Below, piece after piece: positions 18,822-41,663 of a DNA stretch of 64,000 bases. The stretch covers positions 1,280,001 through 1,344,000 of the forward strand of contig OZ241867.1 of NCBI GenBank assembly GCA_965203175.1, in the 5' to 3' direction. Numbering within the stretch: position 1 is the first letter of the stretch; each line of letters begins with the position of its first letter. A program made the position numbers and the translations under genes. The stretch comes from Candidatus Latescibacterota bacterium. GTDB lineage: Bacteria; Latescibacterota; UBA2968; UBA8231. The notes under the pieces are model-generated. The model had not been told where the DNA came from. It saw nothing but the letters and a program-made list of their open reading frames with translations, and made no database searches.

Positions 18822-21078
18822 CGCTCTGGCTGCGGGCGTCGCTTTCCACTTTGAGCCGTAGAAAGTAGTGGCCGGGCAGCACCAGGTCGCCCGATTGGTC
18901 TCGTCCGTCCCAGACCAGTTCTTGGGCGCCGGCCAGCGCTTGTCCCGAAATCTGGCGCACCCGGCGGCCGGCCAGGTCGAAAAGCTCCAGTTTCAGCGGT
19001 CTGTGCTCCAGCACGTTGATCAGGTTCAGGCTGATGAAGAGGCGGTCACCTATGCCGTCGCCATTGGGTGTGAGCACTCTGGGGTACACGGAGAGACGGG
19101 CAAAGAGGGCGCGATCCAGGGGCAACTCGACGATATTGGTACTGCTTTCGACCTGTGGGTTGGCGTCACCCGGTTCGACCCGCTGGCGCACGTCCGGGCC
19201 TAGCTGGCTGTCTTCGAGAAAGAGGTCAAAACGCGTGGCCTGCAGGAAAGCGGCGGCCTCAAAGCGCATCTCCACCAGTTCGCCGCTCTGCACCCGGCGG
19301 GGGAACTGCAAACGGAAGCCGGCGCTGTCCTCTTGCGCCTGGACCTCGATGGGCGCGCCATCGAGGCGGGTGTCGACAAAGCGCAGGGGCGTGGAGGCCT
19401 CTATGGCCAGCCGGTCAAAGCCTTCGCGAGTAGCAGGGGCGCGCAGCCAGTAGGAAAAGGTCACCGTGGTGCCCGGCTCGACTTGGAAGGGGTAGACCTC
19501 GGCGCTGACGCGTTCGGCGATGGGATCGGCGAAGTCTAGGCTCACCCAGTCTATGGAGGGTGCCTGCAGGGGAGAGTCGCTCACCAGACGCGCGTCGAGC
19601 TGGACGAAGCGCCTGAGCGAGGGCGAGAGGAAGGTCTGGCCGGAGGCCGCGTAGATATTGCTCCAGGGACTCCAGTCGCCGCCGGGCGCAGAGGTAGTAT
19701 CGATGGGGCCGCGGAAAGAGGGAATGAGCTTGTCCCACCTCCTTGCGGTGACTTCTTTGAGATTCTTGTCGTAGTAGGTGAAATTCTGCTCCAGTTCGTT
19801 GCCCGAGCGGCTGCGCAGTTCGAGCCGGGTGCCGACGGGCACATCGGCGCCCCAGCGGAGGGCGTTGACATTCTTCCGGCCTCCGAGATCGAGGATGGGG
19901 GAATCGAAGCGCACCTCGCGCGGAAAACCCTCGCTGAAGACCATGATCTCCGCAGTGTGGCCACTGGAGTAGCAATCGGGCGCGCTAGTGCCGGATGCGG
20001 TGGTACAACTGGCGTCCCAAGTCTTGAAGAGGATGCGCAGGAAACGCGTGGGGATGGGGGCGAAGTGGTGCGCGACCATGCCCTGGCGCCGGGTGGCACG
20101 CGGCAGGACGCCGGAAAAGTGCTTGGTCCAGTGCAGCGAGCCGTCCGCGGCCAGCGAGCCGTCCGAGGTCATCATCTCGTGGAAGTTCATACTGAAATGC
20201 CGCCCGCGATCGATATGGCCGATGTGGTGCACTTGGTCGACCCAGTAGACGGCGCCCAGGTCCAGGATGATCCAGGCCCAGACATCGTTGGAGGCGCGCG
20301 GGACTCGGCCGCTGCGCCACCAGGTGTTGATCCGGCCGTCGATCAGCAGCAGGGCATTGGTCAGCGTCGCTTCGACGAAATCTGTGCCGCCGGTGCCGAT
20401 GATGATCTCGACGGCTCCACCCCGCTCGCGCAAGTCCGAGACCAAGTTGTCGCCCAGGGCTTCCACTTCGATTTCGACCAGCCGCGCATCGGGCGCGGCC
20501 TTGAGCGCTTCGAGACGCGCGAACTGGATCGGCGTTGGGGGTATGGCAGGAATGGCGAAGTCGACTCGGTGGGCGCTGTTTGCGCCGAAGCGCTCGGCGA
20601 TGCGGTAGGTCAGGGTGCCGGGGACCGGGACATCGGCTACGTCGATGAACTGCTCCCCGGTGGACAGCAGTAGGTTGAAAATCTCAAAAGGGGGTGCAGC
20701 GTCGTCGAAGACCAGGGAGACACGGCTAGCCGGCACGCCGCGGCCCAGGTCCACCTCGACCCAGCCCGTCTTTTCGAGGTCGCCCGAGGCGGGCTGCCAG
20801 CCGGTCGTAGGGTCGCCGTCGAAGACTAGGGCTGCGGTGGCGCGGTTGGACCCGGCATCGCGGAGGCCGCCGCCATGGTCTAGGGCATCGAGTGCGGCAT
20901 TGATGTTTTTGCGAACCGCCAAAGGACGGACGACCCCCTGGGGCGTCAGTTCGACGATCCCCAAGGGCAGGGTCCACTGGCGCCACTGGGCGGCGTTGTC
21001 GAAGCGCAATTCCTCGGCATTGAGCGGAGCAGCCGCAACAAGCGCCAGCACGGCGCAGCGCAGATGTTTGGGTTTCAT
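18793..21078 (-). CDS. Secreted discoidin/Ig-like protein with TPNGDG + FlgD-Ig C-terminal domain (family member 2, subtype A)
   Basis: Signal peptide; FDGDPTTGW..EVDLGR; RSRSG..DWSPWS; VLTPNGDGIGD; WDGRDQSG..PGHY; ends VSIVY. Confidence 0.78.
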   Translation of the reverse strand: MKPKHLRCAVLALVAAAPLNAEELRFDNAAQWRQWTLPLGIVELTPQGVVRPLAVRKNINAALDALDHGGGLRDAGSNRATAALVFDGDPTTGWQPASGDLEKTGWVEVDLGRGVPASRVSLVFDDAAPPFEIFNLLLSTGEQFIDVADVPVPGTLTYRIAERFGANSAHRVDFAIPAIPPTPIQFARLEALKAAPDARLVEIEVEALGDNLVSDLRERGGAVEIIIGTGGTDFVEATLTNALLLIDGRINTWWRSGRVPRASNDVWAWIILDLGAVYWVDQVHHIGHIDRGRHFSMNFHEMMTSDGSLAADGSLHWTKHFSGVLPRATRRQGMVAHHFAPIPTRFLRILFKTWDASCTTASGTSAPDCYSSGHTAEIMVFSEGFPREVRFDSPILDLGGRKNVNALRWGADVPVGTRLELRSRSGNELEQNFTYYDKNLKEVTARRWDKLIPSFRGPIDTTSAPGGDWSPWSNIYAASGQTFLSPSLRRFVQLDARLVSDSPLQAPSIDWVSLDFADPIAERVSAEVYPFQVEPGTTVTFSYWLRAPATREGFDRLAIEASTPLRFVDTRLDGAPIEVQAQEDSAGFRLQFPRRVQSGELVEMRFEAAAFLQATRFDLFLEDSQLGPDVRQRVEPGDANPQVESSTNIVELPLDRALFARLSVYPRVLTPNGDGIGDRLFISLNLINVLEHRPLKLELFDLAGRRVRQISGQALAGAQELVWDGRDQSGDLVLPGHYFLRLKVESDARSQSVSRMVSIVY

Positions 21079-21171
21079 CAAGGCCGATCCTTTGCGTTAG
21101 GAAGCCATCCAGGAGAATAATAGACAGCCTGGTTATCTAACCGCCTTGTCGAAACACCCTCTGTTGCTCTC

Positions 21172-23110: not shown

Positions 23111-24631
23111 TTGAAAGAGATCCACTTCTGTAAAATCGCAATAGCGCTCATTCTGGGCTTTCCCCTACTGGGGGAGTCGACGACGAAGCTGAGCAAAGGG
23201 GAGATCATGTTCGAGCGGATCGGCAAAGGTATCAACGTGGATGTCTCCCATCTTGAAGGTGGTCCACCCGAAAAGGTGCTGTATGATCCTGCCCAGTACG
23301 ATGCCGTCAAGGCCGCGGGATTCCAAAGCATCCGCTTCTTCGTTGTCGCTGGGGAAGATCCTGCTATCTACAAAACCAGGATACAGGACGCGTTTGACCG
23401 AGACCTTGCTGTCGTGATCTGCTTGTGGGGGAGCGGTCAATGGGCATCGGAGCCGAAAGAGGGGATACAGGAGTTTGTCGCAATTTGGGATAGAATTGCC
23501 AAGTACTACAAGGACTACCCCGGCAGCCTTGTCTTTGAACTTTGGAACGAACCGGCAGGGCTGATAGTGAAACCGGGAGGGATTCAGGGGATAAAGGACG
23601 GCAAAACCGTTATGGAATACCTCAACGCGGCAATCCCCATCATCAGGAAGACCAACCCAGACCGCATTCTCGGAATCGGCGGACCTGGCTTTAACGGGGG
23701 CCGTGAACTCGAGGAATTCGTCACGCCGGAATATCTGACGTACAGGCTGGAAGACGGCTCGGGGTTTGCGGACGACGCCAATATCATCGGCATCTTCCAC
23801 ATGTATCAACCGCACAAGTTCACGCATGGAACCTCGGGGCTAGACGAAGTTCCTAAGTGGAAGGACGAAGTGAGAGAGCAGATGTCACACCCGGTGGCAT
23901 GGTCGAAGAAATGGAGGAAGCCTCTGCTGCTGAGCGAATGGGGCGCTTGGGTGCCGCCCTGCCATACAGTTGAAGACTTCAAGGCCTATATTGGGTTTGT
24001 AGCCGACGAATGCAAGAAACACAACATCGGCTGGATGTATTATTGTGCAGGTTTCAACAACCAATGGGCCTTCAACATTCTCAATACCGAGGACGGTTGG
24101 AACCAGGACGCACTTGATATTCTTACGGAAGTCACAGCCCCCCCGCCCCCGCCCATGTCGCCACTTATCAATTCGGAGTTCAGCAGCGGAACCGCTCACT
24201 GGACCAGCGAAGGGTCCGTGCAGATGTCCGTGGCGAGGAGCGCAGGCCTGAGCGGCTTGGCTGCACTCAAAGTGGAAAGCAAAAAATCGGACCGTGCCGA
24301 AATCTATCAGGAAACTCCCAAGAGAAAGTGGAGTCCTCCGGGCAGGTACCTGATCTCCCTGAGAAAGGGAAGGCTCTATAAGGTATCCTTCTTGGCCAAG
24401 TCCGTGGGTGGGATGGGAACTCTCAAGGTGCGATTGGCCGACGTCTCCGGTTCGAGTGATGGATTTTGGACATCCACGCCGGTGACAATCTCGAACGCAA
24501 AAAGGGAATATGCGATTGAGTACAAGCATACCGGCAGGGATGTAAGAGATGTCCGGGTGGCGTTCCTGTTTGGCGACAGAGACCAGATTATCCTGCTGGA
24601 TCGAATTGCACTGCACGGCTACCGGGAATAG
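23111..24631 (+). CDS. Secreted glycoside hydrolase family 5 with C-terminal CBM4/9-like module
   Basis: AGGAG + TTG start; signal peptide; AGFQSIRF, FELWNEP (acid/base), FHMYQP, LLSEWG (nucleophile); C-terminal beta-sandwich ending LLDRIAL. Confidence 0.85.
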   Translation: MKEIHFCKIAIALILGFPLLGESTTKLSKGEIMFERIGKGINVDVSHLEGGPPEKVLYDPAQYDAVKAAGFQSIRFFVVAGEDPAIYKTRIQDAFDRDLAVVICLWGSGQWASEPKEGIQEFVAIWDRIAKYYKDYPGSLVFELWNEPAGLIVKPGGIQGIKDGKTVMEYLNAAIPIIRKTNPDRILGIGGPGFNGGRELEEFVTPEYLTYRLEDGSGFADDANIIGIFHMYQPHKFTHGTSGLDEVPKWKDEVREQMSHPVAWSKKWRKPLLLSEWGAWVPPCHTVEDFKAYIGFVADECKKHNIGWMYYCAGFNNQWAFNILNTEDGWNQDALDILTEVTAPPPPPMSPLINSEFSSGTAHWTSEGSVQMSVARSAGLSGLAALKVESKKSDRAEIYQETPKRKWSPPGRYLISLRKGRLYKVSFLAKSVGGMGTLKVRLADVSGSSDGFWTSTPVTISNAKREYAIEYKHTGRDVRDVRVAFLFGDRDQIILLDRIALHGYRE

Positions 24632-24697: not shown

Positions 24698-26371
24698 CTA
24701 CTGCACGGCAAACGCTACCTCGAACCTGTCTTCGTGGATTGACACCTCTGACTCGTAGCGGTTGTGCAGTTCCTCCATGTACTCGTTGAACGCGTTTCGG
24801 TATCTCTTGCGTCTGAGCTGAGATCTGATACTCATCTCAGCTTCGGCGAAGGTCTCGCGCTTGCGTTCCCGGGAGAGCACCTTGAAGATAGAGTAGCCCT
24901 CCTGCACCTTGACCGGTCCCGTGAGCTCGCCGATTGCGGCCTCAACCGCAGCTTCCACGAAACCGCCGAACTGGGGCGATTCGTAACGGTGCACGTGGAA
25001 TCGACCCTCGTCATCCCGCACCTCGAGCGATCGAACCGAATGTTTCTTCGCTAGGTCGCCAAAAGCGGTGCCGTCCTCGATCATCCCTTTCAACCACAGT
25101 GCTTCTATTTCTGTTCTTACGAGGATCTCCTGCACCTCGGTCTGTTCGGGATGCAGGAATCTCCCAGCGTTGGCCTCGTAGTACTGGCGCAGGTCGTCTT
25201 CCGCGATAGTCACTCTCTCCTTTAACACCTTGGACCTGAGGACCCTTACCAATAGCTGCTTTTCCTGCTCTTCGAGCCATCGGACCACCGCCTCTTCGCG
25301 ATCAATTCCCTGGCGCACAGCCGCCTCCTGAATCATCACATCAGGGACGATGTACTGCTCGGCGAAGGAAACCACCTGCTCGGCGTCGCGGAGTGTCTCC
25401 AGGACATTGCCCTTGCGGCTCTTGGCCGCGCCGATGAGGTCGGCAGCGGTAATCTCTCCGCTGTCGTACTGGTAGAGTGCGATCGCAGAGGGGTCGTGGC
25501 CGACGTCCGCCGCACCGGGGCGCAGTGCCTCGACGGCAGCAGCTATGCCGTCTCGGACTGGCTCGAGGCGGTATTTATCCCTCAATTCCGCCACCAACTC
25601 GGCCTTCGCGATTCCATGCTTCTTTCGTTGGAGTTCTTCAGCGATTTTTATCCGCTGTCGCGGATTGAACTGAACGGTCGTCTCATCGAGGATCTTGAAG
25701 ACGGCGTATCGGTCGCCGATTCGAATTGGATCCGACACCGAGCCTACCGCGAGCCCGAACAGCTTGTCGGCGAGGCCGGGAATCATCTCGTACCTAGTGG
25801 TGAACCGACCTGTGTCCCCGCCCCGGGCCGCGGTCTCTTTGTGCATCGACCGCTTCCTCGCGACGTCCGCAAAGCTCGTCCCTCCCTCGATCTCCCTCGC
25901 GGCCTTCTCTGCCGTTTCGCGGTCGGCGACTAGGATGTCGCCCAGTCTGATCGCGCGGTCGAGTCCCTCCCGGTCTATGTACTCTTCTACTTCACCGTCT
26001 TCTACCGTTGCGTCGATCGTCCTTCGCTCGTACTCACTGACGAGCTTCGCCTTCCTGATCTGGATCACCCTAGTCATGTAGGGGGAACTCCTCTCGAGGC
26101 CCTGGCTTCGGGCTTCCATCAGCAGCAGTTCCATGTCGATCATGGTCTGCAGATGGTCCCTCAACGGCTCCTTCCCGGCTTCTTCGTCCTTGGCGTGCTC
26201 GGGCAGTTTGGCGAGGAAATCCCGCACGTCCCGTACAGTGATCGTCCGGTCTCCAACCTCCGCGACCGTGGGATTTTCATCCTGCGGTCCGCAGCCTGTG
26301 CAAATTAAAAGGAGCGCTAGGCTGCCTGCTTTCGCCACTGGTGCTCCGTAGGAGAAAAAAAAAGCGCGCAT
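24698..26371 (-). CDS. SurA/PrsA-like lipoprotein peptidyl-prolyl isomerase with two parvulin domains
   Basis: Lipobox-like LLICTGC; VAEVGDRTIT; G.SF..+A++.S...A.RGGD.G; second domain EILV..G.AF..LAKKHS; GP+...GY.+FK. Confidence 0.85.
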   Translation of the reverse strand: MRAFFFSYGAPVAKAGSLALLLICTGCGPQDENPTVAEVGDRTITVRDVRDFLAKLPEHAKDEEAGKEPLRDHLQTMIDMELLLMEARSQGLERSSPYMTRVIQIRKAKLVSEYERRTIDATVEDGEVEEYIDREGLDRAIRLGDILVADRETAEKAAREIEGGTSFADVARKRSMHKETAARGGDTGRFTTRYEMIPGLADKLFGLAVGSVSDPIRIGDRYAVFKILDETTVQFNPRQRIKIAEELQRKKHGIAKAELVAELRDKYRLEPVRDGIAAAVEALRPGAADVGHDPSAIALYQYDSGEITAADLIGAAKSRKGNVLETLRDAEQVVSFAEQYIVPDVMIQEAAVRQGIDREEAVVRWLEEQEKQLLVRVLRSKVLKERVTIAEDDLRQYYEANAGRFLHPEQTEVQEILVRTEIEALWLKGMIEDGTAFGDLAKKHSVRSLEVRDDEGRFHVHRYESPQFGGFVEAAVEAAIGELTGPVKVQEGYSIFKVLSRERKRETFAEAEMSIRSQLRRKRYRNAFNEYMEELHNRYESEVSIHEDRFEVAFAVQ

Positions 26372-26403
26372 CGTGCACCTCCACTCAAGCTCGCGTCTAT
26401 GCT

Positions 26404-29112
26404 CTAATCTAGACCGGCGTACATCGTGGCAAAGGACACGCTGCCCGTCTCGGTCTCGTTATCTATCGATCTTCTGGTCAATCTCATACCCATGTTCGTC
26501 AACAGCCGGTAACCCAGGTAATTGGTGACGTTCGAGAACTGCACCGCTCCGACGATCTCGGTGAAATCGTCGAGCAGTCCCTCCTTGACCGCGGTCTCCG
26601 ATTTGCGCAGCTGGTTGAAGATCGTGTACTCCACACCGGCCTGCATGGTGGAAGAAGAAAACAGCGGCCATCGCGCCAGCAGGGAGAGTTGCAGCGTGTC
26701 TTCCCTGCGCTTGGGATCAGAGCTGAGCGCCGGAGCCTCCAGCCTGAGTTCGTTCTTTATTCTCGGCATGAGATCGACATAGGCGATCTTGCGCTCGAGG
26801 TCCACCTTGTTGATGAAACCGAAGAAGGTGTAGTCCTCGCGCAGATCGGGATGTCGTTCGTTCTGGTGCCAGCGATCGTATTTGAACTTACTCACGAAAT
26901 TCACATCCTCGATCTTGGTGTACTTGAAGCTCATGAACGTGGAGTTTATCCACGTGTCCTGAGCCGCCAGGGGATCGACAGTTGGAACGTTCCGCCGCTC
27001 GAACTCGTTCCACTGGCGAAGATCGTTCTCGATGTTGTCCTTGGCGATTCTGAGATTCTCGTAGATCGTCAGCCTGCCAAGACCCGGATAGTCTCGTTCT
27101 AGGGTGAAGAGCACGTAGTTAGTTGTGTTCTCCCCGTCGCCTGCAATCAGTCTCTCATCCGTTCGTCCGACGGTCAGCCTGATGCCCGGAAGCAGGCCGA
27201 CGCCGCCGTAGATGTTGTATCCTGCGTGGTCTCTCGGGTAGGGAAAATCCGGCTCATCGTCGTTTTCGAACCGATCTACCCAGATGTTGTTGTTCATGTC
27301 TAATCCGAACAAGTACTCCGGCCTGTCTGTTCCGTATCTCAAGAACGGCTCGTCGTAGTCCGGGACGAGATTGGGAAGGTCTTCGCTGTCGTTCTGGTTG
27401 AAATCGGATATGAAGTCGAGGTTTTCGTCGTACCCGGGAAACACCTCGATGTCTATGTCTTGGAATATCCTCTGCCAGTCGGGGTATCTATCCTGATCGT
27501 CGTTGTCGTCGACGAGCTCGTAGAAGAATCTCCCCTCGTCCGAGTAGTCTATGTTGGTCTCGCCCCTGGCCAGTATGGCGCTGGTGTTGTAGTTGTGGGC
27601 CATGCTGTAGGCTTCGCTGAAGAAGAAGAACGGATAGGCGACCTTCGACAGATTCAACATCCAGCCATCGCCTTGGTCAGAGGCCCCTAGGTGCTTGGTG
27701 TGCGCCCTGTTGGGGTACTTCCTGTAACTCACGCTGCGGTCCCATTCTCCGTACAAGTCGAATCCCCAGAGGCGGGTCGCCTCCAGCGTAAATCCGAATA
27801 TCTCGGTGGCCGTCGGCAGACCATACGGGATCTTCAGGACTGTCAGGTTGGAGCCATCCTTGACGTTATCATCGGCTCTGGCAGCCAGCAGGTAGACGTT
27901 GGCCAACTGCCTGTCGAACTGGCGGTCCGAGGTCATCTCGATTCTGTAGTCGTTGGCGACTGCCAACTCGAATGTCACCATTCTTATCTCTGACGGATCT
28001 GGGCCTGTGTACGTCGCCACCGAGAAGTCGTAGACCAGTTCGATCTGCTCGGAGCCGTTCGCCTCCCAGAACCCCAGCCTCTGAAAGCCGCCTTGGGGCT
28101 CGGGAATCAGCCCGACTTCGCTGGCCCGGACGGTCTTCCTTGCGAAACTCACATCCCCCGCTTCATCGATCGTTTCGACGTCGGCCTCTATGATCATGTC
28201 CCACGCGAACAGCGTGGCACCGCCTTCGTTGTCCTCTGGCGAGTCGTCCGAGAGTCGCACGAAGACTTGGGTGACGTTCTCCGCGTTCTGACTGGAGGTG
28301 ATCGAACCGCTTCGCGGGCTGCCCTCGAAGGCGTCGAGGAGCTGAGAGGAGTTGTGGGCGCTCACGTGGTTGGCGCCGAGTTTGAGATAATCTCCAATCT
28401 GGGTCGTCGCGCGTCGGCCGGTCAGGGTCGTCGAGCTCGTCTGCTGGTTACTGGGGCTTCGCGAGCCGGCGGCACCCGGCGAGCTGATCCGCGAGAGGAG
28501 CGCCGTTACTTCGTACTTGTCGGATTGATAGTCCACCTGAATGCCGTCGAACGCCGGCTTGGAGAAGGTCATCGGGGTCAGGGTTGACCGAATCTCGTCG
28601 CCTATGGTGATGGCCAGATTGTGCTGTCCCTTCTGATCGGAGGCTACGACCAGCCTACTGAAGAAACTCTGGAACCGTTCGGTCTTAAATAGGTTGCTTC
28701 CCCCCTGCTGGGGCTGGGTCTGGCTCCAGTCGTAGATCAGCCATCCTCTGGTGATGTACGAACCGTAGATGTCGTAGAAGTAGTCCCCCTCGAGATTGGT
28801 CGATACATAGCGCTTGTAGTGATCTCTCGCGTAGTTGCTGTACTCCCACTGCTTCCACTGATATTCGCGAAACAGCTCCTGTGGGACGTACCACTTCTTG
28901 ACCGCGGGGTCTAGAGCGCCGAACAGGACGCCGGGGCCCGTCGGTTCGAACGTGAGTTCGCCGCCGCGGCGAAACCCCTTTATCCGGTCTCGATCGGGAC
29001 CCTGGGCTTCCGAGCGAGTACTGTGCAGCAGAATTGCCGAGACGATGGTACACCATATGGCCAGCGCACCAACCAGGCGCATCGCGGCTCTGAACGTATG
29101 ACCGGTCACCAT
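26404..29112 (-). CDS. Large exported protein, predicted outer-membrane beta-barrel with Ca-binding-like DxNxD loops
   Basis: Signal peptide; aromatic-rich N-terminus (KWYVPQELFREYQWKQWEYSNYAR); VDDNDDQD, DENLDFISD, DMNNNIWVD; alternating beta-strand pattern in the C-terminal third. The barrel fold is inferred. Confidence 0.55.
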   Translation of the reverse strand: MVTGHTFRAAMRLVGALAIWCTIVSAILLHSTRSEAQGPDRDRIKGFRRGGELTFEPTGPGVLFGALDPAVKKWYVPQELFREYQWKQWEYSNYARDHYKRYVSTNLEGDYFYDIYGSYITRGWLIYDWSQTQPQQGGSNLFKTERFQSFFSRLVVASDQKGQHNLAITIGDEIRSTLTPMTFSKPAFDGIQVDYQSDKYEVTALLSRISSPGAAGSRSPSNQQTSSTTLTGRRATTQIGDYLKLGANHVSAHNSSQLLDAFEGSPRSGSITSSQNAENVTQVFVRLSDDSPEDNEGGATLFAWDMIIEADVETIDEAGDVSFARKTVRASEVGLIPEPQGGFQRLGFWEANGSEQIELVYDFSVATYTGPDPSEIRMVTFELAVANDYRIEMTSDRQFDRQLANVYLLAARADDNVKDGSNLTVLKIPYGLPTATEIFGFTLEATRLWGFDLYGEWDRSVSYRKYPNRAHTKHLGASDQGDGWMLNLSKVAYPFFFFSEAYSMAHNYNTSAILARGETNIDYSDEGRFFYELVDDNDDQDRYPDWQRIFQDIDIEVFPGYDENLDFISDFNQNDSEDLPNLVPDYDEPFLRYGTDRPEYLFGLDMNNNIWVDRFENDDEPDFPYPRDHAGYNIYGGVGLLPGIRLTVGRTDERLIAGDGENTTNYVLFTLERDYPGLGRLTIYENLRIAKDNIENDLRQWNEFERRNVPTVDPLAAQDTWINSTFMSFKYTKIEDVNFVSKFKYDRWHQNERHPDLREDYTFFGFINKVDLERKIAYVDLMPRIKNELRLEAPALSSDPKRREDTLQLSLLARWPLFSSSTMQAGVEYTIFNQLRKSETAVKEGLLDDFTEIVGAVQFSNVTNYLGYRLLTNMGMRLTRRSIDNETETGSVSFATMYAGLD

Positions 29113-29167
29113 GTGACTCCCCCTATCCTTGCGGCTCCAATGCTGAGGCCGGACTGCGCGCGAAAAA

Positions 29168-30910
29168 TCAATAGACCAAAGGCGCGATCGCAGTCTTGCT
29201 CTCCTTACCTGTATCTGCAGCGACTTCCACGCGCACGAGGTAGATTCCCGGCGCTAGCATTTGCCCGTTGTCGTCCGCGCCGTCCCAAACTCTCTGATAT
29301 CTTCCACCGATGTCGAGGTCGGAGTAGATCACCCTTCTGAGGCGGCCGGCGAGGTCGTAGACTTGTACCGACACCGGAGCACCGCCTGTCAGGTTAACGA
29401 TATCGTAGGTGACGATGGCTTGGTCGTTAACTCCATCGCCATTGGGCGTAAACGGAGCCGGGGCAGCCTCGAGGAAGGTGATGCGATTGTCGGCGACCCG
29501 GGTGGTGACCGACAGGTCGTCACCCCCGGCGACGGGGTCAGCGTCCACGTCTCCCGGGACGAGCGTCTGCGGCAGGTTCTGCGGTCTCTGGGTGTCGAAG
29601 ACCCTGCCGATGAAGACGGTTTTGTAGTGCAGCGCGATGCTCTCGAACACGACGCGCAGCAGTCGGTTGTCACCGGTGATCCTCGGGAAGCTGATTCGGA
29701 CGCCGACGATGTCGCCGTCGTCTTCGATGTCCTCCTTGTCCCACGCCACGTCGGTCCCGTCGATCTGGACCGATCGGATGATCTCCACCGGTGCCTGTGT
29801 CTTGATGTCGAGTTGGTCGAAGCCGCTGCTGTTGTAGCTGCGCACCCAGTAGGTCAGTTCGGTCGCCTGCCCGATCACGGCTTCCTGAGGCCACACCTCC
29901 CCCACCACGGAATCGGCCAGCGCTGGCGAGACCTCTACGGCAATCGAATCGACCGTCGCGGCCGAAAGGATGTCGCTGCTCTGGAACAGAACGCGAAACT
30001 GCCAGTACTGGCGGGGTGCAGGTGATGCGATCTGTGTACGGACTCCGGCCGGATAGGGAAGAGACCATCCGCTCCACTCTAGGCTATCGCTCGGGTCCGG
30101 CGTGTGGCCACTCCGGGTGGATACGGTAGCAGATACCTTGGCAGGTTCTCCTATCGTCTCCTTTGCCCACATTATACTGCCAAAGACGGCGGGCCGACCT
30201 TCATCGAACACCTTTGAGGTGTACGCAGCAGCAGATGTGAAACCTTCGCCGAAGATCTCAAACTCGTCAATCTCCCATTCCCCTCGAACGAGCTGTTTCA
30301 CTTCTATGAAACGCACGAACTGCAGCGGCACAGCTAGGTCGACGACCGGGTCGAGATTGCGCTCGACTGTCTTGAAGAGTCTGAGATCGGGATTTCCGGA
30401 AACGGTCTGCTGCTCCTCGCTGCCGTCGTTCAGCCTCACTAGGTAACCCTTCAGGAAGAACTCCTCAAACCCTTCGCGGGGGAAAAATCTGATCCTGTTG
30501 ACTCCGAAACGCTCGCCCAGATCAAATCTCAGTATGATTCCTGTGGCTGACGGGATCTTGATTTCGAAGGCCGTGTTCCTGCCGTCCACCATGTTGTCCA
30601 ACAAGTTCTCGAATTCACTCTGGGTGACTTCGAGGACCGTGCGCGCATTTGGCGACGTTATTTGCCCCCCCCTTTCGATCAACTTCAGGGAAATGTTGTC
30701 TTCAGGATCGTTCTGTAAAGGTTGAATGGAACCGGGGTTGGTTTCGAAATCGATGACCGCTATCTCGGAATACTCCTGATCCCAGGCGCGGGAACCCGGG
30801 CCACCTCCGAAGATGATCGTCTCTCCATTGCCTGTCGCCGCAAGTCCGAGGAGAACAATGGATAAAACGGGCAGGGCCACTGCTCTATGAGGTGATGTCC
30901 CGACTGGCAT
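29168..30910 (-). CDS. Secreted discoidin/Ig-like protein with FTPNGDGVND + FlgD-Ig domain (family member 3, subtype B)
   Basis: Signal peptide from ATG 30910 (AGGAG upstream); RFDLGERFGVNRIRF; STRSG..WSGWS; PFTPNGDGVND; ends APLVY. Confidence 0.78.
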   Translation of the reverse strand: MPVGTSPHRAVALPVLSIVLLGLAATGNGETIIFGGGPGSRAWDQEYSEIAVIDFETNPGSIQPLQNDPEDNISLKLIERGGQITSPNARTVLEVTQSEFENLLDNMVDGRNTAFEIKIPSATGIILRFDLGERFGVNRIRFFPREGFEEFFLKGYLVRLNDGSEEQQTVSGNPDLRLFKTVERNLDPVVDLAVPLQFVRFIEVKQLVRGEWEIDEFEIFGEGFTSAAAYTSKVFDEGRPAVFGSIMWAKETIGEPAKVSATVSTRSGHTPDPSDSLEWSGWSLPYPAGVRTQIASPAPRQYWQFRVLFQSSDILSAATVDSIAVEVSPALADSVVGEVWPQEAVIGQATELTYWVRSYNSSGFDQLDIKTQAPVEIIRSVQIDGTDVAWDKEDIEDDGDIVGVRISFPRITGDNRLLRVVFESIALHYKTVFIGRVFDTQRPQNLPQTLVPGDVDADPVAGGDDLSVTTRVADNRITFLEAAPAPFTPNGDGVNDQAIVTYDIVNLTGGAPVSVQVYDLAGRLRRVIYSDLDIGGRYQRVWDGADDNGQMLAPGIYLVRVEVAADTGKESKTAIAPLVY

Positions 30911-30929
30911 TGCCAAGCACTGGCTCCTG

Positions 30930-33704
30930 TTAGTAGGCGACGTGCACCAATCGATGGACCGAGGTGTTCTTCTTGGATGTCGAATCCACATCTAGGTCGA
31001 TGCGCATCAGATAAATCCCCGGTGGCACGATCTCTCCCGACTGATCAACTCCCGTCCACGCCACCGTATGACGACCCGCCGTTATAGTCTCCTCAGCTAT
31101 CCGCGTCACCAGTCGGCCGCTCAGATCGTACACTGCCACCTGAACCGGCGCCGAGCTGAGCACTCGCAGCAGCGAAAAACTGACCTCCAGTTCGTCGTTG
31201 ACGCCGTCGCCGTTGGGCGTAAAAACGCGATCGACCTGTAGATCCCCCAGCAACTCGCCGCGCTCCAGCGCCAACACCACCGTCGTCTCGCTGTCCACAA
31301 CCCCGTTGGCATCGCCGTCATCCACCCGCTGCCACGAGTTTTCGAACGCCGAGTTCCCCATGGAGCCGATGAAAAACGTGTTGAACCTGAATATGGTCGC
31401 CTCAAACTGAAGCTCCACCAGCGCTGATCCACTCGTCGTCTTGATTGCAGCTGGCAGACGCACCCACAGCGAATCCGTCTCCATCACCACCTCAAACCCC
31501 TCGCTCTCCGCCGTATACGTCACGGCGTCCTGCCCCGTCACGTTTACACTCACCTGTTTCAGCTTCATGCCAACGTCGTCGGGTGCCTCGATGAGGATCT
31601 CGTCGAACCCCCTGCTGCCCGATTTGAAGGTCGAACGAATGAAATACGACATTTGCTGCTTCGTGCCTATCTCCTCCAGCCGCGAGGGCAGCACCTCGCC
31701 CACGATCGCGCCAGCCACCGGCGTCACGAAGTTCAGCGCCACCGAACGTAGCGTGGCCGCCGCCTTAGGGTCTTCTGTCAGGAAGATCGCCCTGATGGCG
31801 ACGAACCGTCTGGGACTGGGCGAGGTAATCTTTGCGCCTGAATCGAAGTAGGGCTGACTCCAGCTACTCCAGTCATCGCCCGGGAGCGTCTCGGTTCTGA
31901 CCGGGCCCACCGAAGCTTCCCCGAAGAACTTCTTGTCCGTCTCCCAGGCCTTGGCCGCCTCCTCTTCGGTGCCTGGGAATTCATCCCCGTTCTTCTTGTA
32001 GTAGCGGGTTATGCTCTCGACCGTATCGCCGGTTCGGGTTTGCAAGATTAGATCCGCACCCGGCGGCACGTCGGCCTCCCACTCGATGGTAGCTAGGTTC
32101 TGAGGGGTCCGCGCCACTTCTATGAACGGAGCCTCCCCTCCGAACTCAGACGAGATCTGCGACTCCGGCAGGAACCCTTCCCCGAAAAACTGGACCTCCG
32201 ACACCCCGTGACTCCCTTGTCCGGGCTCGTACGTGGAGCGGTCGTGGAGCCTATAGGTAAAGGCAAAATGCTCGACCTTCGTGAGCGGGAACTTGAAGTC
32301 GTGGAAATTCTGCCCCCGCACGATGTCGCTGAGCGACCCCACCGTCTTCCAGGCCAGTTCGCCGCCAGCATTGGTGGAGCCGTCCGAGAGCTGAATGCGA
32401 TAGGCTCTGAACGGAGGTGGGTTGGGGAGGGCGTGGAGTATTCTGATATTGTCCACAAAGTAGGAGCCTCCGAGATCTATGAACATTGAGCGCTCCGCAT
32501 CCCGCGGATCCGCAATCGGCAACTTGTTGGGATCGTAACTCCCGTTGGCAGACCAGAACACGACCTCGCCGAAGAGGTCTCCATCTACCACGGCCGCCCC
32601 CTTGTTGATATTCTCCCGGGCGGTCACCTTGCCGCCCCGCTCCAGTACGCCTGTGCCGATGTTGTCGCCGATGGTCCAGACCTCGATCTCGGCCAGCCTG
32701 GGTATTTCGCGGCGGTAGTAAACTACCGGCCCCTGCCTCTCCGTGCCTGCCAGAGCTTCCCAATCCTCTTTCCCATCCAGCAACCTCACCTCCCCCGATG
32801 CCTCTCGTCGGAAGTAGTCTATCTCTCCCTGTTGGTCGGCCGGCAGACTATCGTATTCGGATTGGGAAACCTGCCTCGCCCTGCCGAAGTCGCTGTCCGT
32901 GATCCCCACCCCGACGTATTGGATGACGTCGCCGGTGAAGTCGCCCCGGGCATCGGGCCACTTCGTCGGTAGCTGTTTGGTCAGATCGATCTCGAAAACC
33001 CGCTCGTTCTTGATCGGTTTGTCCGTGGTGAAGCGCGTCCGGAAAAGGAGCTGACCGAGCGTTTTCTGTCCCTGTGAAGTGATCACCTTGAACTGCAGAA
33101 AAGGGTCTCCCAGATCTTCACTGACAAACTTGAGGACGATCCTAGTGGCCGATACCGTCCGCCCCAGATCGATCTGCACCCACCAGTCCCGCAACAGGTC
33201 GGAGGGGTCCGGTTCCCAGAAGGTGTCCATCCTGCCATCCATGAGGTCGATGCCGCTCGAGCGATTGGATCCGGCATTCAACACACCGCCGCCGAAATCG
33301 ACGGCATTGAGGACGGCGTTGATGCCGGGAACGACGACTTCCTCGCCATCTATTTCCAGTCTCGTGTGCTTGCGGATGAAGGCAGGTTTCACTCCCTCAT
33401 TGCTGATCTGGACCGTGTTGGCAGCGGAGTGCCAGTGTTCCCAATGCGCCCTGGAATCGACGACCACTCTGCCCGAATCCAGCGAATACCCCTCCTGTCC
33501 CCAGCACAGACATACCGCCGACAGCGTCAACGCGGAACAGACGAGTGCCGTGCGGAGGGGATCTGTTAGCCGTTGAGCGCCGACCCATCCCCGCTCGCGG
33601 TGATCCCTACCTACGCCGACTCGGGTTCTTGTCGAGTTCAGCAATAGCGCCGATGAGCGCACTTCTCTCTCCTTATCTCGCTCCCGAGCTTGCGCCCCGC
33701 TCAT
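30930..33704 (-). CDS. Secreted discoidin/Ig-like protein with FTPNGDGVND + FlgD-Ig domain (family member 4, subtype A)
   Basis: Paralogue of 18793-21078 (GGG..AGSN..DG..T.W.P..DLGR.V.A); QTRTG..DWSSWS; VFTPNGDGVND; ends VHVAY; start uncertain (the 33749 ORF start lies inside the terminator). Confidence 0.75.
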   Translation of the reverse strand: MSGAQARERDKEREVRSSALLLNSTRTRVGVGRDHRERGWVGAQRLTDPLRTALVCSALTLSAVCLCWGQEGYSLDSGRVVVDSRAHWEHWHSAANTVQISNEGVKPAFIRKHTRLEIDGEEVVVPGINAVLNAVDFGGGVLNAGSNRSSGIDLMDGRMDTFWEPDPSDLLRDWWVQIDLGRTVSATRIVLKFVSEDLGDPFLQFKVITSQGQKTLGQLLFRTRFTTDKPIKNERVFEIDLTKQLPTKWPDARGDFTGDVIQYVGVGITDSDFGRARQVSQSEYDSLPADQQGEIDYFRREASGEVRLLDGKEDWEALAGTERQGPVVYYRREIPRLAEIEVWTIGDNIGTGVLERGGKVTARENINKGAAVVDGDLFGEVVFWSANGSYDPNKLPIADPRDAERSMFIDLGGSYFVDNIRILHALPNPPPFRAYRIQLSDGSTNAGGELAWKTVGSLSDIVRGQNFHDFKFPLTKVEHFAFTYRLHDRSTYEPGQGSHGVSEVQFFGEGFLPESQISSEFGGEAPFIEVARTPQNLATIEWEADVPPGADLILQTRTGDTVESITRYYKKNGDEFPGTEEEAAKAWETDKKFFGEASVGPVRTETLPGDDWSSWSQPYFDSGAKITSPSPRRFVAIRAIFLTEDPKAAATLRSVALNFVTPVAGAIVGEVLPSRLEEIGTKQQMSYFIRSTFKSGSRGFDEILIEAPDDVGMKLKQVSVNVTGQDAVTYTAESEGFEVVMETDSLWVRLPAAIKTTSGSALVELQFEATIFRFNTFFIGSMGNSAFENSWQRVDDGDANGVVDSETTVVLALERGELLGDLQVDRVFTPNGDGVNDELEVSFSLLRVLSSAPVQVAVYDLSGRLVTRIAEETITAGRHTVAWTGVDQSGEIVPPGIYLMRIDLDVDSTSKKNTSVHRLVHVAY

Positions 33705-33727
33705 GTCGGAAACGCCGTTGAGCACCG

Positions 33728-33765
33728 AAAAAAGGGGGGCGAGGATCAACGATCTCGCCCCCCTT
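33728..33765 (-). terminator. Intrinsic terminator after the first gene of the operon
   Basis: Minus strand GGGGGGCGAGATC-GTT-GATCCTCGCCCCCC followed by TTTTTT. Confidence 0.8.
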
Positions 33766-33805
33766 CAACAACAGCCGTCCTGGGTCCTTACAGCCGACCT
33801 TCCCC

Positions 33806-34714
33806 CTATTTGGAGAAACTCGCCTTAATGCGGCCCCAGGTGTCGTCCTCGACCGCTGTGGCGTCGGACACCCAGTTGTTTGCGTCAAAACCAAGTAGCA
33901 CGTAGTCTACCAGGGAATCGGCGTGGAAGTACATGTTGATGTCGCCAGTGGAAACCCAGTAGCCGTTGTACGAATCGCCTGGGCCATTGTCATCGTCCTG
34001 AATGGCCATGCCGATGCCCATGACCTGGCCTTCCTCCAGGTTATGGGTAATCAGGTCGGGATCGTCGGGACCGGTCGAACTGGCGGGCAGGTCGTCGAAG
34101 GTGGTGAACCAACTCTCCTGAAAGAGAGTGGCGGGTCCACCGGCCTCGCCCTCGACGTTCCATCTGATGCCGGCGTAAGGCTCTACAGAGGCCCATACTC
34201 CGCCGCCCCATAACCACAGGTTGTTGTCCGGGTTATTGAGCGACTGCTGCCAGTCCTGCGCGGTGGCCCCGGCCCATCGCTCCGGATCCAGGCCTTCAAT
34301 GTCTCCTTGGAACTGCCCGCCGCTGTGGTCGGCATCGATCACGAGCTCGAGTTTGTCGTTGGTGGCGTCGAGGGTGCCGTACCAGAGGTCGTCGAACCTT
34401 TCCTCCATGACGTACACAAAGTTGGTCTCTGGGCTCCAGCCGACGATGATGCGCTCGGCAAGATTGCCTGGATCCGGGTCACCCTGGGTGCCCGTGACGA
34501 CCTCGATTAGGTCATCTTGGGTTACCCAGAAGACAGACGGTACGTTGTCCCAATCGCCGAGATCACCGTCTACCACGACGTCCCTGATTCCATCGACGTC
34601 GATGGGCACCTGTACCGCCGCCCAGTTCCGGTCTGTCCGCTGGTGGGCCGAACTCGGAGTGAAGGAAGCGAGAACGAGGCCCAAAACGGTAGCTATAACA
34701 ATAATCCTCTTCAC
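33806..34714 (-). CDS. Secreted acidic CBM9-like protein with C-terminal TAVEDDTWGRIK tail
   Basis: AAAAGGAG RBS; signal peptide; VVDGDLGDW, IIVGW..VYV..DD, ELVIDADHSGG (shared with 7079-8149); ends ATAVEDDTWGRIKASFSK. Confidence 0.75.
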   Translation of the reverse strand: MKRIIVIATVLGLVLASFTPSSAHQRTDRNWAAVQVPIDVDGIRDVVVDGDLGDWDNVPSVFWVTQDDLIEVVTGTQGDPDPGNLAERIIVGWSPETNFVYVMEERFDDLWYGTLDATNDKLELVIDADHSGGQFQGDIEGLDPERWAGATAQDWQQSLNNPDNNLWLWGGGVWASVEPYAGIRWNVEGEAGGPATLFQESWFTTFDDLPASSTGPDDPDLITHNLEEGQVMGIGMAIQDDDNGPGDSYNGYWVSTGDINMYFHADSLVDYVLLGFDANNWVSDATAVEDDTWGRIKASFSK

Positions 34715-34890
34715 TGTTGCTTCTCCTTTTGTCTATAGAATGATGACTACTACTACATTTGCGTTGATTCTGAAATGCGGGCTTTCCCTCAACACCTCCT
34801 TTCAGCGCACCATTCGCTCAGCGAGCGAGAGCAAACGGGAACTGGTGATTTTGCGCAAACCCGGTTCTAACTGAAAAGCGATTTGACTTT

Positions 34891-34919
34891 AATATGGGAA
34901 ATTATGCCCGGAAATCCAA
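34891..34919 (-). promoter_or_regulatory. Putative sigma70-like promoter of the 34714-24698 operon
   Basis: TTGGAT-N17-CATATT on the minus strand in an AT-rich spacer. Confidence 0.45.
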
Positions 34920-35266
34920 GGAAAACTTCCAGCATGTTGATGCCCCAACTTCGAGACCGACCTGACGGGTGATGTCCTTAAAGCGTCCCCGCCCCTCGTT
35001 GCCGTAGAGCGCGTTGCTACGAGGCATTATAAGCACTAGCGAGGGTATTCATTTAACCGGACCTATGGTATCTTATGTAGGAGCGCAGAACATGAGACGG
35101 CGAATGCTCCATCTGGCATTGCTGGCGTGGGCTTCGTCGAGGGTGTGGTGGTCAAGGGGCACACTATCAGGGACATCACGGTCGATCTATCCGGCGACAC
35201 GGCGGTGGAGGACGAAGCCCAGTCGCTGCTGCCTCCTCACTTGGGTAGTTCTTTCTTAAGGCGTAG

Positions 35267-39626: not shown

Positions 39627-41663
39627 TCAGATCTGGGTCAGGAAGCTGCCCGTGGTGCCCGTGGCGTAGTCGATCACTAGGAATACCCCGGCCCCGACGA
39701 TTTCGCCCAGGATTAGACCCAAGAAAAAGGGCCGCAAGTTGCGGTAGAGGCGCACGCCGCCGTAGCGCAGGATCACCAGCTTCAGGAACCAGGCCAGCAG
39801 GGCGCTGCAGAAGATGTGACCCGTCTTCCAATTGGCGGCGATCGTGAACCCGAGCGGGTTGAGGGGCCACCACAGGAAGTGGTGGCGCGCCCACATGAGC
39901 GCCGCCATCACGCCTGCCCCGATGCCCATGAACTGATAGGCGTCCCAGCGCGGGCCTTCGGGTTCGGCGGCGATACGCGGGGCCATGTCCATGGGTCCGA
40001 AGTGGGTGGACTGCCAGGAGAAGAACAAGGGGTTGAGGTTGATGCCGCCGTACTCGTACGCCATGACTAGGGTGACGTAAGAGGAGCCCGCTAGGCTGAC
40101 TAGGATGGCCAGGACAATGGCCCAAAACAGCCGGCGCTTCTGGCCGCGGATCATTTCGCTCATCTTCAGCCCGTTGGCGACTGAGGCCATCACGAAGGAG
40201 CGGACCTCGGCGTGCCAGCCGTAGGAGAAGCCGAGCGCCACCAAGCCCTGGGTGCCGATGGAGGAGGTGCCGACCGCGGAGATCACGAAGGTCGAGGTCA
40301 TCAGGGGCGGACGCATGGCCGGGATGCCGCCCTCGGCGACCACCCGCGTCAGCGCCATGAACAGGATCATGGCGCCGAAGACGAACAGCACTGCCACCGG
40401 GAAGGGCAGGCCGATCGTCGACAGCCAGATGGCGACGGTCAGCAGGCCGGCAAGCAGCCCGAAAAACGCCTGCCGATAGGAGAGGATCTCGCCGCTGTCA
40501 TCGATTTCCCGCAGCCCGCCGACGGCCTTTGCCACCACATCGCGCAGGTGCCGACGCGCCACCCACAGCCCGACGACGACGAAGGCGATCATCGCCCCGA
40601 GACCCTGGTGGGCTAGGAAGGGATCTTCGGAGTAGAAGTCGATCCGCTGCGTACTCTGCACGCCGATCGTGTTGAAGATGCCCCGCTGCAGCCTGACGAG
40701 GACGTAGAAGACCCAGATCGAGGCCGAGATGTCGAGGTTGACGAAATAGAAGAACCCGGTCCAGGGCGGGCTGAACCAGAAGCTGAGCCAGGTGTTGCCG
40801 AACAGGGGCACGCCCACGGCGCGCTCGAAGCGGGGAAACTCCGGAAAGTAGGAGTGTAAGCCGTTGACGCTCAACAACAAAAAGGAGACGGCGAAGCCTA
40901 GCCACATGGTCTTGTTGGTGAAGAACGAGCGGCCTACAGCGCCGCCGCCCTCCCGCCGCATCATCTCCATCGGCACTTGCACCAGCGCGTAGCTGAGCTT
41001 CTCGTTGTCGACCCACTGCTTGCGTAGAATGACCATCGCGCAGATCATGGCAAAGGCGAGGGCGAGAAAGAAGCCGAACCACAGGCTCAGGGGCACGACC
41101 CAGGCACCCCAGGGAATCGAGGCCCCCTCGGGCAGCCCCTCAAAAAAATAGCGGGCCACGTTCTCGCCGCGCGGGATCATCCACTGGGGGATGTATTGAT
41201 TGTAGAGGGAATCCCAGTTGTTCTCGGGCGTGGCGTAGTAGGTCGACCCGAGGAGGCAGGGGATCATGAACTGAGTGAAGCCCATGCCGGGGATGCAGCA
41301 GGCCACCACCAGCATGATGTAGATGGTGATCAGTTCCGCCCGGGTCAGCGCCAGCCATCGGTGGAGGAGGCCGACTGCGGCACTGGCCAAGACGAGGAAG
41401 AAAAATAAAAAGAGGGCGGCCGGGGTGCTGAAGTTGAGGGTTAGGTAGGAGCCTCGGATCTCATTCGTCGCGTAGGTGTCGCAGATGTTGAGCACCAGAG
41501 CCAGCACTGCCCCGATGAGGATGCCCCGCAGCGGGATCCTCTGCAGATCCCGCGCCTGCTGTCGGTCCCCCTGCGGAGGTGCCGTCATCGGGGGCGTGGC
41601 TGGTGGTGCGTCGCGAGGCGGCGGTCGCAACTGTCGCGAGGCGGCAGCGGTCGCAACGGCCAA
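39627..41663 (-). CDS. Polytopic membrane protein, DUF6785/DUF6784 (OPT-like putative transporter)
   Basis: About 15 or more hydrophobic segments; YYATPEN.W, IPW.AW..PL..W, ILRKQW...EKL.Y, RVVAEGG, WWPLNPLGF, RYGG..LY...RPFFLGLILGE; start uncertain (TTG 41663 or ATG 41588). Confidence 0.72.
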   Translation of the reverse strand: MAVATAAASRQLRPPPRDAPPATPPMTAPPQGDRQQARDLQRIPLRGILIGAVLALVLNICDTYATNEIRGSYLTLNFSTPAALFLFFFLVLASAAVGLLHRWLALTRAELITIYIMLVVACCIPGMGFTQFMIPCLLGSTYYATPENNWDSLYNQYIPQWMIPRGENVARYFFEGLPEGASIPWGAWVVPLSLWFGFFLALAFAMICAMVILRKQWVDNEKLSYALVQVPMEMMRREGGGAVGRSFFTNKTMWLGFAVSFLLLSVNGLHSYFPEFPRFERAVGVPLFGNTWLSFWFSPPWTGFFYFVNLDISASIWVFYVLVRLQRGIFNTIGVQSTQRIDFYSEDPFLAHQGLGAMIAFVVVGLWVARRHLRDVVAKAVGGLREIDDSGEILSYRQAFFGLLAGLLTVAIWLSTIGLPFPVAVLFVFGAMILFMALTRVVAEGGIPAMRPPLMTSTFVISAVGTSSIGTQGLVALGFSYGWHAEVRSFVMASVANGLKMSEMIRGQKRRLFWAIVLAILVSLAGSSYVTLVMAYEYGGINLNPLFFSWQSTHFGPMDMAPRIAAEPEGPRWDAYQFMGIGAGVMAALMWARHHFLWWPLNPLGFTIAANWKTGHIFCSALLAWFLKLVILRYGGVRLYRNLRPFFLGLILGEIVGAGVFLVIDYATGTTGSFLTQI

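Follow-up and report, generated by a model that had tools for sequence, protein, structure and literature searches.

The DNA considered here is a window of 64,000 nucleotides (the term denotes the whole stretch throughout) from a Candidatus Latescibacterota genome, available as a single contig of 6.58 Mb that contains the entire window. Five genes on the minus strand of the window form a module coding for a CBM9-fold protein (C), two surface proteins with FlgD_ig/CHU_C tails (F-A and F-B), a predicted giant outer-membrane β-barrel (B) and a parvulin lipoprotein (P). The five-gene arrangement is far beyond chance, because it recurs 41 times in the genome and is found again in related genomes. 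About 8% of the genome is devoted to a module whose central protein has no named family. The reading put forward here, whose chances we regard as even, is that F-A and F-B would be type-B-like cargo of the type 9 secretion system (T9SS) and that the co-encoded giant barrel would serve as their cognate receptor, anchor or shuttle.

The genes follow one another in the 5′ to 3′ order C, F-A, F-B, B, P. C (33806..34714, minus strand) is a secreted CBM9-fold protein of 302 aa that begins with GTG, the ribosome-binding site AAAGGAG standing ahead of it. F-A (30930..33749, minus strand, TTG start, 939 aa as called) joins a discoidin-like region to a C-terminal FlgD_ig/CHU_C domain. F-B (29168..30991, minus strand, 607 aa) has a CBM6/32- or discoidin-like N-terminal part with the same kind of C-terminal domain and lies immediately upstream of the barrel. 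B (26404..29112, minus strand, 902 aa) is the putative outer-membrane β-barrel, and P (24698..26371, minus strand, 557 aa) is a lipoprotein with two parvulin peptidyl-prolyl isomerase domains and a SurA/PrsA-like N-terminal region. The intergenic gaps as called do not exceed ~60 nt. C, F-A, F-B and B each carry one N-terminal hydrophobic segment, and the leader of P ends in a Cys-containing lipobox-like motif (L-x-[AG]-C in ~27 of the 40 P paralogues). An earlier inspection of the letters without database searches (the sequence-only reading) had described five co-oriented, closely spaced open reading frames (ORFs) with export signals, and their coordinates, spacing and N-terminal signals agree with that description. 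The start of F-A is probably over-called and the real one later than the called TTG, since the signal peptide sits at residues ~65-83. For F-B, a Met 26 codons inside the called ORF is the likely start.

The recurrence of the module was established on a genome set of 5174 ORFs, the longest ones being chosen greedily by a crude caller that over-calls starts. Paralogues of the five proteins were collected with phmmer at E ≤ 1e-5, which gave 62 B, 40 P, 30 C and approximately 200 F ORFs, the latter with FlgD/CHU_C tails. Directly upstream of a barrel, in the same orientation, stands an F gene in 43/62 cases, another barrel in 14/62 and a different gene in 5/62. The 41 modules occupy 546,218 bp, or 8.3% of the genome. 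They contain B, F, P and C (22 modules), B, F and P (7), B and F (11) or B alone (1), so that B and F stand together in 40/41. A barrel is no more than six genes away from 35/40 P paralogues and 23/30 C paralogues, compared with 9.6% of all genes. The sequence-only reading had taken the locus for a self-contained operon. The module itself stands, with a gene order that recurs in the genome and its relatives and keeps the barrel in synteny with FlgD/CHU_C, CBM9-fold and parvulin genes; its singularity does not, the window holding one copy out of 41.

The F genes constitute positional families. Among genes at position -1 relative to the barrel, the top-three matches are also at -1 in 100/129 cases; the corresponding values are 30/62 at position -2 and 11/36 at position -3. 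F-A belongs to the family at -2 and F-B to the family at -1. The barrels that occur as tandem pairs or triplets (for example at contig positions 903395-909014, 1474968-1480684 and 6156224-6164891 of G000:C1) separate into two subfamilies, first barrels matching first barrels in 11/12 cases and later ones matching later ones in 10/14. These distinct upstream and downstream barrels hint at hetero-oligomeric or two-step barrels.

The layout was also followed in related loci from public records, 80 in number, most of which have Candidatus Latescibacterota in the title. The order C-F-F-B-P is found in the four closest loci (L024-L026 and L047). Thirteen loci, which share 69-77% identity, show C-F-F-F-B-P (L030-L039, L043, L044 and L088), and further fixed layouts are seen in other subfamilies. 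Six loci (L040, L041, L060, L078, L098 and L101) are uninformative on layout, the caller having given long opposite-strand ORFs.

The tails of the F proteins connect the module to the T9SS. In Pfam, F-A is matched by F5_F8_type_C_2 (38.1 bits), FlgD_ig (34.1 bits) and CHU_C (33.3 bits), and F-B by FlgD_ig (30.3 bits) and CHU_C (29.6 bits). Both proteins pass the CHU_C (PF13585) gathering score of 27 at their extreme C-terminus. Matches were obtained with FlgD for F-A (3osv, 2.7e-7) and for F-B (3osv, 4.5e-7), the latter also matching a carbohydrate-binding module (CBM; 2yb7, 8.8e-5) at positions 103-228. Among 28 relatives of F-B, FlgD_ig and CHU_C were both found in 28/28 (E ≤ 0.01) and F5_F8_type_C in 8/28. 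The Pfam domains and the positional families together uphold the earlier view of two discoidin/FlgD paralogues of subtypes A and B. The likeness to the T9SS type-B (CHU_C) tail, which had been noticed from the letters, is likewise substantiated by the CHU_C score, and the barrel gene sits where a PorP/SprF gene would.

Two tail classes coexist in the genome, one of the NYPNPFNP type (46 ORFs) and the other of the FTPNGDG type (109 ORFs). The type-A model TIGR04183 is passed by 4/4 of the NYPNPFNP-tailed proteins tested. Within three genes of a barrel are found 64/109 of the FTPNGDG-type ORFs, compared with 4/46 of the NYPNPFNP type and 259/5112 other genes.

The genome encodes recognisable parts of the T9SS. 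SprA and PorU both exceed their cut-offs, SprA with 490 bits (618 with the neighbour in frame) and PorU with 632 bits, and PorU is adjoined by a PorV-like gene with 147 bits, below the cut-off of 250. A search for the PorP family (TIGR03519) found no gene in the genome, its sole match (21 bits) lying inside the PorV-like gene. The presence of SprA, PorU and the PorV-like gene elsewhere in the genome means that export of the F proteins is best ascribed to the T9SS and not to the new barrel. Of the earlier proposal that the barrel anchors or exports the F proteins, the export part is accordingly given up. The check for SprA, PorV and GldKLMN that the same proposal had called for yielded these three genes and, for GldK, just FGE matches below cut-off.

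The phyletic distribution separates the tails from the secretion system. Searches with the barrel, CHU_C and SprA were made in an identical set of 121 genomes of the phylum; these are related and not independent, and the counts are given without a statistic. The barrel was found in 72/121 genomes, with 40/40 in the window's own family (f1), 0/29 in a second family (f2) and 0/13 in a third (f3). CHU_C was found in 79/121 (f1, 40/40; f2, 5/29, all single weak matches; f3, 0/13), and SprA in 116/121 (f1, 40/40; f2, 29/29; f3, 13/13). From these counts it follows that the barrel tracks the type-B-like tails across the phylum rather than SprA, that is, rather than the secretion system as such. Each of the 40 genomes of the window's family holds from 10 to 165 barrel candidates at a first look. 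According to the accessible parts of two papers (PMC9143113, PMC12618676), type-B cargo binds barrels of the PorP/SprF family, which are cognate shuttles and anchors often encoded beside the cargo.

From the models and searches, B is concluded to be a large barrel of the outer membrane that falls outside every characterised family. It has no match in Pfam and no NCBIfam family at E ≤ 0.01, and a profile search of the PDB gave 0 matches at E ≤ 1. Its relatives number more than 1000 in a 90%-clustered collection, none of them named. In a 50%-identity cluster library the family has at least 1000 representatives at E ≤ 0.001, 717 at E ≤ 1e-10 and 335 at E ≤ 1e-30. The AlphaFold model, built from a 40-sequence alignment, has a mean predicted local distance difference test score (pLDDT) of 65.9 and a predicted template-modelling score of 0.62, and displays ~28-30 long strands spanning residues 154-901, residues 31-152 and 537-616 being the low-confidence parts. 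The two most conserved regions are the N-terminal 115 aa (residues 37-152) and an acidic, D/N-rich insert (residues 531-628). Their mean column identities are 0.76 and 0.83 in the 40-sequence alignment, compared with 0.61-0.69 elsewhere, and 0.62 and 0.74 among 51 paralogues of the same genome, compared with 0.48-0.57 elsewhere. Taken alone, neither region has a Pfam match even at E ≤ 5. A DUF6029 identity suggested by the nearest named Atlas cluster (0.88) was treated as a lead only and dropped, as nothing else backed it.

Foldseek searches with the B model retrieved outer-membrane barrels only (SlpA, MtrB, LptD, FimD and TonB-dependent receptors), with TM-scores of 0.16-0.26. The top matches are the Deinococcus SlpA structures 7zgx and 8ae1 (E ~1e-8, with a query TM-score of just 0.18-0.23). 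VIA-align against 48,161 chains gave Z values of 9-13.7, all of them for barrels, with no clear front-runner. Overlap was longest with MtrB (409 residues), SlpA (392) and SusC (346), the SlpA alignment having Z 11.9 and a root-mean-square deviation (rmsd) of 10 Å. SlpA_C (PF21620) appears in 5/10 distant relatives of B with 16.8-21.7 bits, below the cut-off of 35, and was absent from the Pfam scan of the window's B. A distant kinship between B and the SlpA-type giant barrel is possible. The 902-aa protein had been proposed to be a novel barrel, and the β-barrel model, the exclusively barrel-like fold matches and the empty Pfam and NCBIfam searches all agree with that proposal.

P carries the parvulin signature expected from its earlier description as a two-parvulin lipoprotein, with Rotamase_2 at 77.5 bits in two stretches, Rotamase at 62.7 bits (Pfam) and the lipobox-like leader mentioned above. 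SurA_N_3 reaches 21 bits, below its cut-off of 27.2. The protein also remains below all NCBIfam equivalog cut-offs (29.5 versus 394 for SurA PRK10770; 83.5 versus 343 for the best PrsA model).

C has no Pfam match (no CBM9_1 at E ≤ 0.01) and no NCBIfam name. The label CBM9-like that it had been given is secured by its fold. The model has a pLDDT of 80.3, its top Foldseek match is 7nwn (E 3.2e-9), and superposition on this structure with VIA gives Z 19.7 and rmsd 2.3 Å over 182 of 195 residues, closely followed by 1i82 with Z 19.4. For CBM9 modules overall, Z is 19.2-19.7 and rmsd 2.3-2.9 Å over 182-186 residues; DOMON-like haem subunits rank second with Z 11-12. The nearest Atlas clusters of C carry CBM9_1 in 13-100% of their members, and a divergent relative of 317 aa is matched by CBM9_1 with 39.3 bits. 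Invariant positions in the C alignment are H24, H130, W293, K297 and several Asp, G294 being invariant or nearly so. The predicted mature N-terminus is a His in 26/30 paralogues (24 by regular expression and 2 by eye); the codons for residues 23-24 are at 34640-34645. The set formed by this His, H130 and the Asp residues is reminiscent of metal sites with an N-terminal His, or of the haem sites found in DOMON relatives.

The TWGRIK tail reported for C is indeed present (33806-33870) and conserved in the form WGxIK. The pattern TAVE-x-x-[ST]-W-G-x-[IV]-K occurs within the last 20 residues of 86 ORFs in the genome, 24 belonging to the C family and 62 from outside it, the latter all small (100-560 aa). 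Many of these 62 stand in tandem arrays, mostly far from barrels; examples of tail ORF regions are G000:C1:1361532-1376241, 4966210-4983946 and 5057660-5066094. No hydrophobic helix follows the WGxIK tail, which appears to be a C-terminal tag in general use in this organism.

With these components the following course can be proposed for the locus, taken as one copy of a multi-copy envelope module that would be specific to Latescibacterota. All five products would leave the cytoplasm by the Sec pathway, P as a lipoprotein, as their signals indicate. F-A and F-B would be lectin-like proteins composed of a discoidin/CBM-like domain, a middle region and the C-terminal FlgD_ig/CHU_C domain. Judging from this tail, the T9SS (SprA, PorU and the PorV-like protein) would carry them across the outer membrane. 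Subsequently, the type-B-like tails would bypass PorV, and the 902-aa barrel would receive the F proteins and hold them on the surface, in the manner of PorP/SprF. Gene adjacency, the split between the tail classes and the phyletic co-occurrence all point to such a handover of the tail to the barrel. The conserved N-terminal segment and the acidic insert probably fill or gate the barrel lumen. P would serve the module as its own periplasmic chaperone, with the barrel, the cargo or both as clients, and C may act as an accessory ligand-binding subunit. The 41 diversified modules would then give the cell many surface binding specificities.

Several observations weigh against cargo anchoring by the barrel. 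B shows no PorP/SprF similarity, and all known shuttles are much smaller. The confidence of its model is middling (pLDDT 65.9), and the gene set behind the counts comes from a crude ORF caller. The tails of F-A and F-B match FlgD_ig besides CHU_C and miss the cut-off of 35 of the type-B model TIGR04131, with 19.4 and 17.2 bits, F-A also scoring below cut-off with TIGR04183 (19.1 bits). Of the GldKLMN proteins the search covered GldK, which is represented in the genome just by sub-cut-off FGE-domain matches. Module-wise homogenisation of the C-terminal domains was not found, the best match lying in the same module for 11/111 domains versus 12/111 bodies. Finally, 38/109 type-B-like ORFs are six or more genes away from any barrel, some of them in F-only arrays; these may be orphan cargo that uses a barrel encoded elsewhere. 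As many as six or seven CHU_C-tailed F genes can stand in one array with no barrel nearby, for example at G000:C1:5507494-5521029.

An alternative that we consider unlikely, yet the one that survives best, makes the module an uptake system analogous to a polysaccharide utilisation locus. F and C would capture the ligand at the surface, the barrel would mainly serve to import it, as a gated channel independent of TonB, and nearby DUF6785/6784 proteins would carry it across the inner membrane. The very large barrel with its conserved plug-like N-terminal region and acidic insert would suit such a channel, as would the CBM9 fold of C and the discoidin/CBM-like domains of the F proteins for capture, and the 41 diversified copies recall the multiplicity of polysaccharide utilisation loci. 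Polytopic proteins of the DUF6785/6784 type are enriched near barrels, 21/53 DUF6785-type ORFs lying within six genes of one against a background of 9.6%. The genome has a single SusD-like gene (SusD_RagB, at 3767002, with a stop codon inside and away from the window locus), and a glycoside hydrolase family 5 (GH5) gene adjoins the window copy. On the other hand, of the 190 ORFs that lie within or beside the modules and belong to none of their families, 97 were scanned with Pfam, and one glycoside hydrolase was found, namely the GH5 of the window. The recurrent neighbours are FG-GAP+UnbV_ASPIC, TPR and DUF6785+DUF6784 proteins and not carbohydrate-active enzymes (CAZymes). Neither a Plug domain nor any recognised TonB-related feature was detected in the barrel (Pfam, with residues 37-152 also searched alone at E ≤ 5), and the genome already holds 31 Plug-domain genes over cut-off (32 matches in all), none at the window's barrel. 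The glycan-capture system independent of SusCD that had been envisaged is so far unsupported, given this single hydrolase and the conservation of the GH5 neighbour in the closest relatives only.

An import role, so far unsupported, would be compatible with an anchoring role of the barrel. Combining both, the module can be imagined as the Latescibacterota counterpart of the polysaccharide utilisation loci, a T9SS-coupled, TonB-independent capture and import machine in which a barrel of ~30 strands docks the cargo and also serves as a gated pore, with 41 specificities; this elaboration is likewise doubtful. Its gate would consist of the plug-like N-terminal region and the acidic, probably Ca-binding insert. 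Attached to it would be the CBM9-fold subunit with the N-terminal His, possibly binding metal. The private parvulin chaperone may assemble the machine, which may feed DUF6785/6784 inner-membrane permeases. Were the uptake role true, the module would represent a second, independent solution to the problem solved by the SusCD systems.

A pathway of its own, resembling chaperone-usher assembly and independent of the T9SS, is improbable and less likely than cargo anchoring. The barrel would then be the translocation and assembly platform and P the chaperone, and a surface fibre or complex would be built from F and C subunits. The number of chaperone genes, about one per module (35/40 near barrels), is what such a pathway would lead one to expect, as are the fixed order of the positional F families, a barrel of usher size or larger with FimD and PapC among its fold matches, and the tandem barrels of two subfamilies (11/12 and 10/14). 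However, the tails match T9SS C-terminal domain models, CHU_C over cut-off, and SprA and PorU are present in the genome. Furthermore, no usher or chaperone family was matched in Pfam or NCBIfam, the usher folds score no better than other large barrels, and the parvulin gene is absent from 11/41 modules. Weaker still, and very improbable, is a structural surface layer or host-adhesion array without transport, in which a remotely SlpA-like barrel would anchor an F and C coat for attachment, for example to the sponge host matrix: the SlpA structures 7zgx and 8ae1 as top Foldseek matches (E ~1e-8), the sub-threshold SlpA_C in 5/10 distant relatives, the occurrence of the stretch in sponge metagenomes and the FG-GAP/ASPIC and TPR neighbours speak for it, but Pfam shows no SLH or other wall-binding domain, the TM-scores are low (0.18-0.23), the family also occurs in genomes whose records carry no sponge label, and 41 different coats per cell are hard to picture.

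The surroundings of the five genes contain further features. The module shares an intergenic stretch (34715..35266) with a divergent GDSL/TPR gene, and this is presumed to be the promoter region. A sigma-70 scan gave 0 promoter-like sites versus 3.3 expected, with a consensus that may not be that of this phylum, and a terminator scan gave 8 terminator-like sites versus 7.9 expected. The convergent GH5 neighbour that had been pointed out is there (23111..24631, plus strand; Cellulase 80.5 bits, CBM_4_9 28.1 bits), as a neighbour that the module does not generally include. By position alone, an opposite ORF of 526 aa is at its place in L025 and L026, and none was seen in L024. Downstream, behind a PhyH-domain gene, is a third discoidin protein with a CHU_C/FlgD_ig tail (18793..21081, minus strand, 762 aa), matched in Pfam by F5_F8_type_C (48 bits), CHU_C (27.0 bits) and FlgD_ig (24.2 bits). 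Its position is kept in the closest relatives, F proteins of 762-778 aa being at the equivalent place in L024-L026. The DUF6785+DUF6784 protein of the window (39627..41663, minus strand; 434 and 103 bits) is a polytopic membrane protein with 10 hydrophobic segments, whose membership of the module is uncertain; the literature search returned no paper mentioning DUF6785.

ASPIC-type ORFs lie within six genes of a barrel in 26/60 cases in the genome. The most frequent neighbours of the modules are FG-GAP_3+UnbV_ASPIC proteins and long TPR proteins, some with a PMT_2 glycosyltransferase domain, with examples at L106:15470-17218 and L130:978-2669. Small proteins with an FGE-sulfatase domain also recur near modules, 6/12 being near barrels. 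The window has a second, barrel-less cluster (5511-5738, 7079-8149 and 10048-10329, plus strand), in which ORFs of 965 and 684 aa with FlgD/CHU_C-like tails flank a divergent CBM9-like paralogue. The 684-aa ORF is matched by CHU_C itself and the 965-aa ORF only by the tail of PorU. The paralogue, of 356 aa, has neither the N-terminal His nor the WGxIK tail.

The stretch is found in sponge and marine metagenomes. Contigs of four metatranscriptomic studies, 93-97% alike and so derived from relatives, cover all five genes and bridge the junctions between C and F-A, F-B and B, and B and P; such contigs show neither single transcripts nor levels and are weak evidence, the more so since DNA may be present in RNA libraries. 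Over the C gene (33864-34955) the word depth is 128-312 in contigs of three RNA studies, in two of them far above that of the other four genes (mostly 0-30). As contig depth cannot rank genes, this is only a hint that C may be expressed more highly or separately.

The module is not described in the libraries or the literature searched; its kind, type-B cargo with a cognate barrel, is known, and its barrel family is unnamed. The literature search, which covered papers without their supplements, returned none joining Latescibacter* with the T9SS or FlgD, and the accessible part of PMC4454575 mentions only non-specific porins and Plug proteins. The nearest relatives of the single components differ from them in several respects. 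C has a fold in common with CBM9 (Thermotoga Xyn10A CBM9-2 and Caldicellulosiruptor CBM9), but it is a stand-alone secreted protein without a Pfam CBM9_1 match, with an N-terminal His and with a WGxIK tail common to 62 unrelated small ORFs. P resembles SurA, PrsA and PpiD in its PPIC-type rotamase domains after a chaperone-like N-terminal part and in its envelope location; unlike them, it is a lipoprotein with 40 module-tied paralogues and remains far below the NCBIfam equivalog cut-offs. Deinococcus SlpA, a 30-strand barrel, and MtrB, LptD and FimD are the best structural matches of B, whose model has a comparable number of strands. Unlike SlpA, B has no SLH or coiled-coil N-terminus, passes no family cut-off and stands in a different gene context.

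The SusC/SusD loci of Bacteroidota are like the module in their dozens of diversified loci and in combining a large barrel with surface proteins of carbohydrate-binding folds. The module differs in having neither a Plug/TonB-dependent receptor domain nor a SusD partner. Its surface proteins would be T9SS cargo and not lipoproteins, and CAZyme genes are not its regular neighbours.

The closest parallel is T9SS type-B cargo with its PorP/SprF barrel, as in SprB-SprF of Flavobacterium johnsoniae and PG1035-PorP-PorE of Porphyromonas gingivalis, where the cargo, like that of the module, bears a CHU_C-type C-terminal domain. As far as the accessible parts of PMC9143113 and PMC12618676 go, both systems place the barrel gene directly downstream of the cargo and keep many cognate pairs per genome. 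In both, the T9SS translocon genes are present and type-A tails are not linked to barrels. The barrel of the module, on the other hand, with 902 aa and ~28-30 strands, is about three times larger and has no sequence match to PorP/SprF (TIGR03519), and the F tails do not reach the NCBIfam cut-off for type B. Each barrel is accompanied by two or three putative cargo genes, which come from distinct positional families, some barrels are in tandem, and the module adds a parvulin lipoprotein and a CBM9-fold protein, with no PorE-like OmpA protein recognised. If the cargo-anchor reading is true, the rule that type-B cargo needs its own barrel extends beyond Bacteroidota, to an entirely different and much larger barrel. 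It would also provide four new families that merit profile models, namely those of the barrel, of the F proteins by position, of the CBM9-fold protein and of the parvulin of the module, and a handle on surface decoration in uncultured Latescibacterota, including those of sponge metagenomes.

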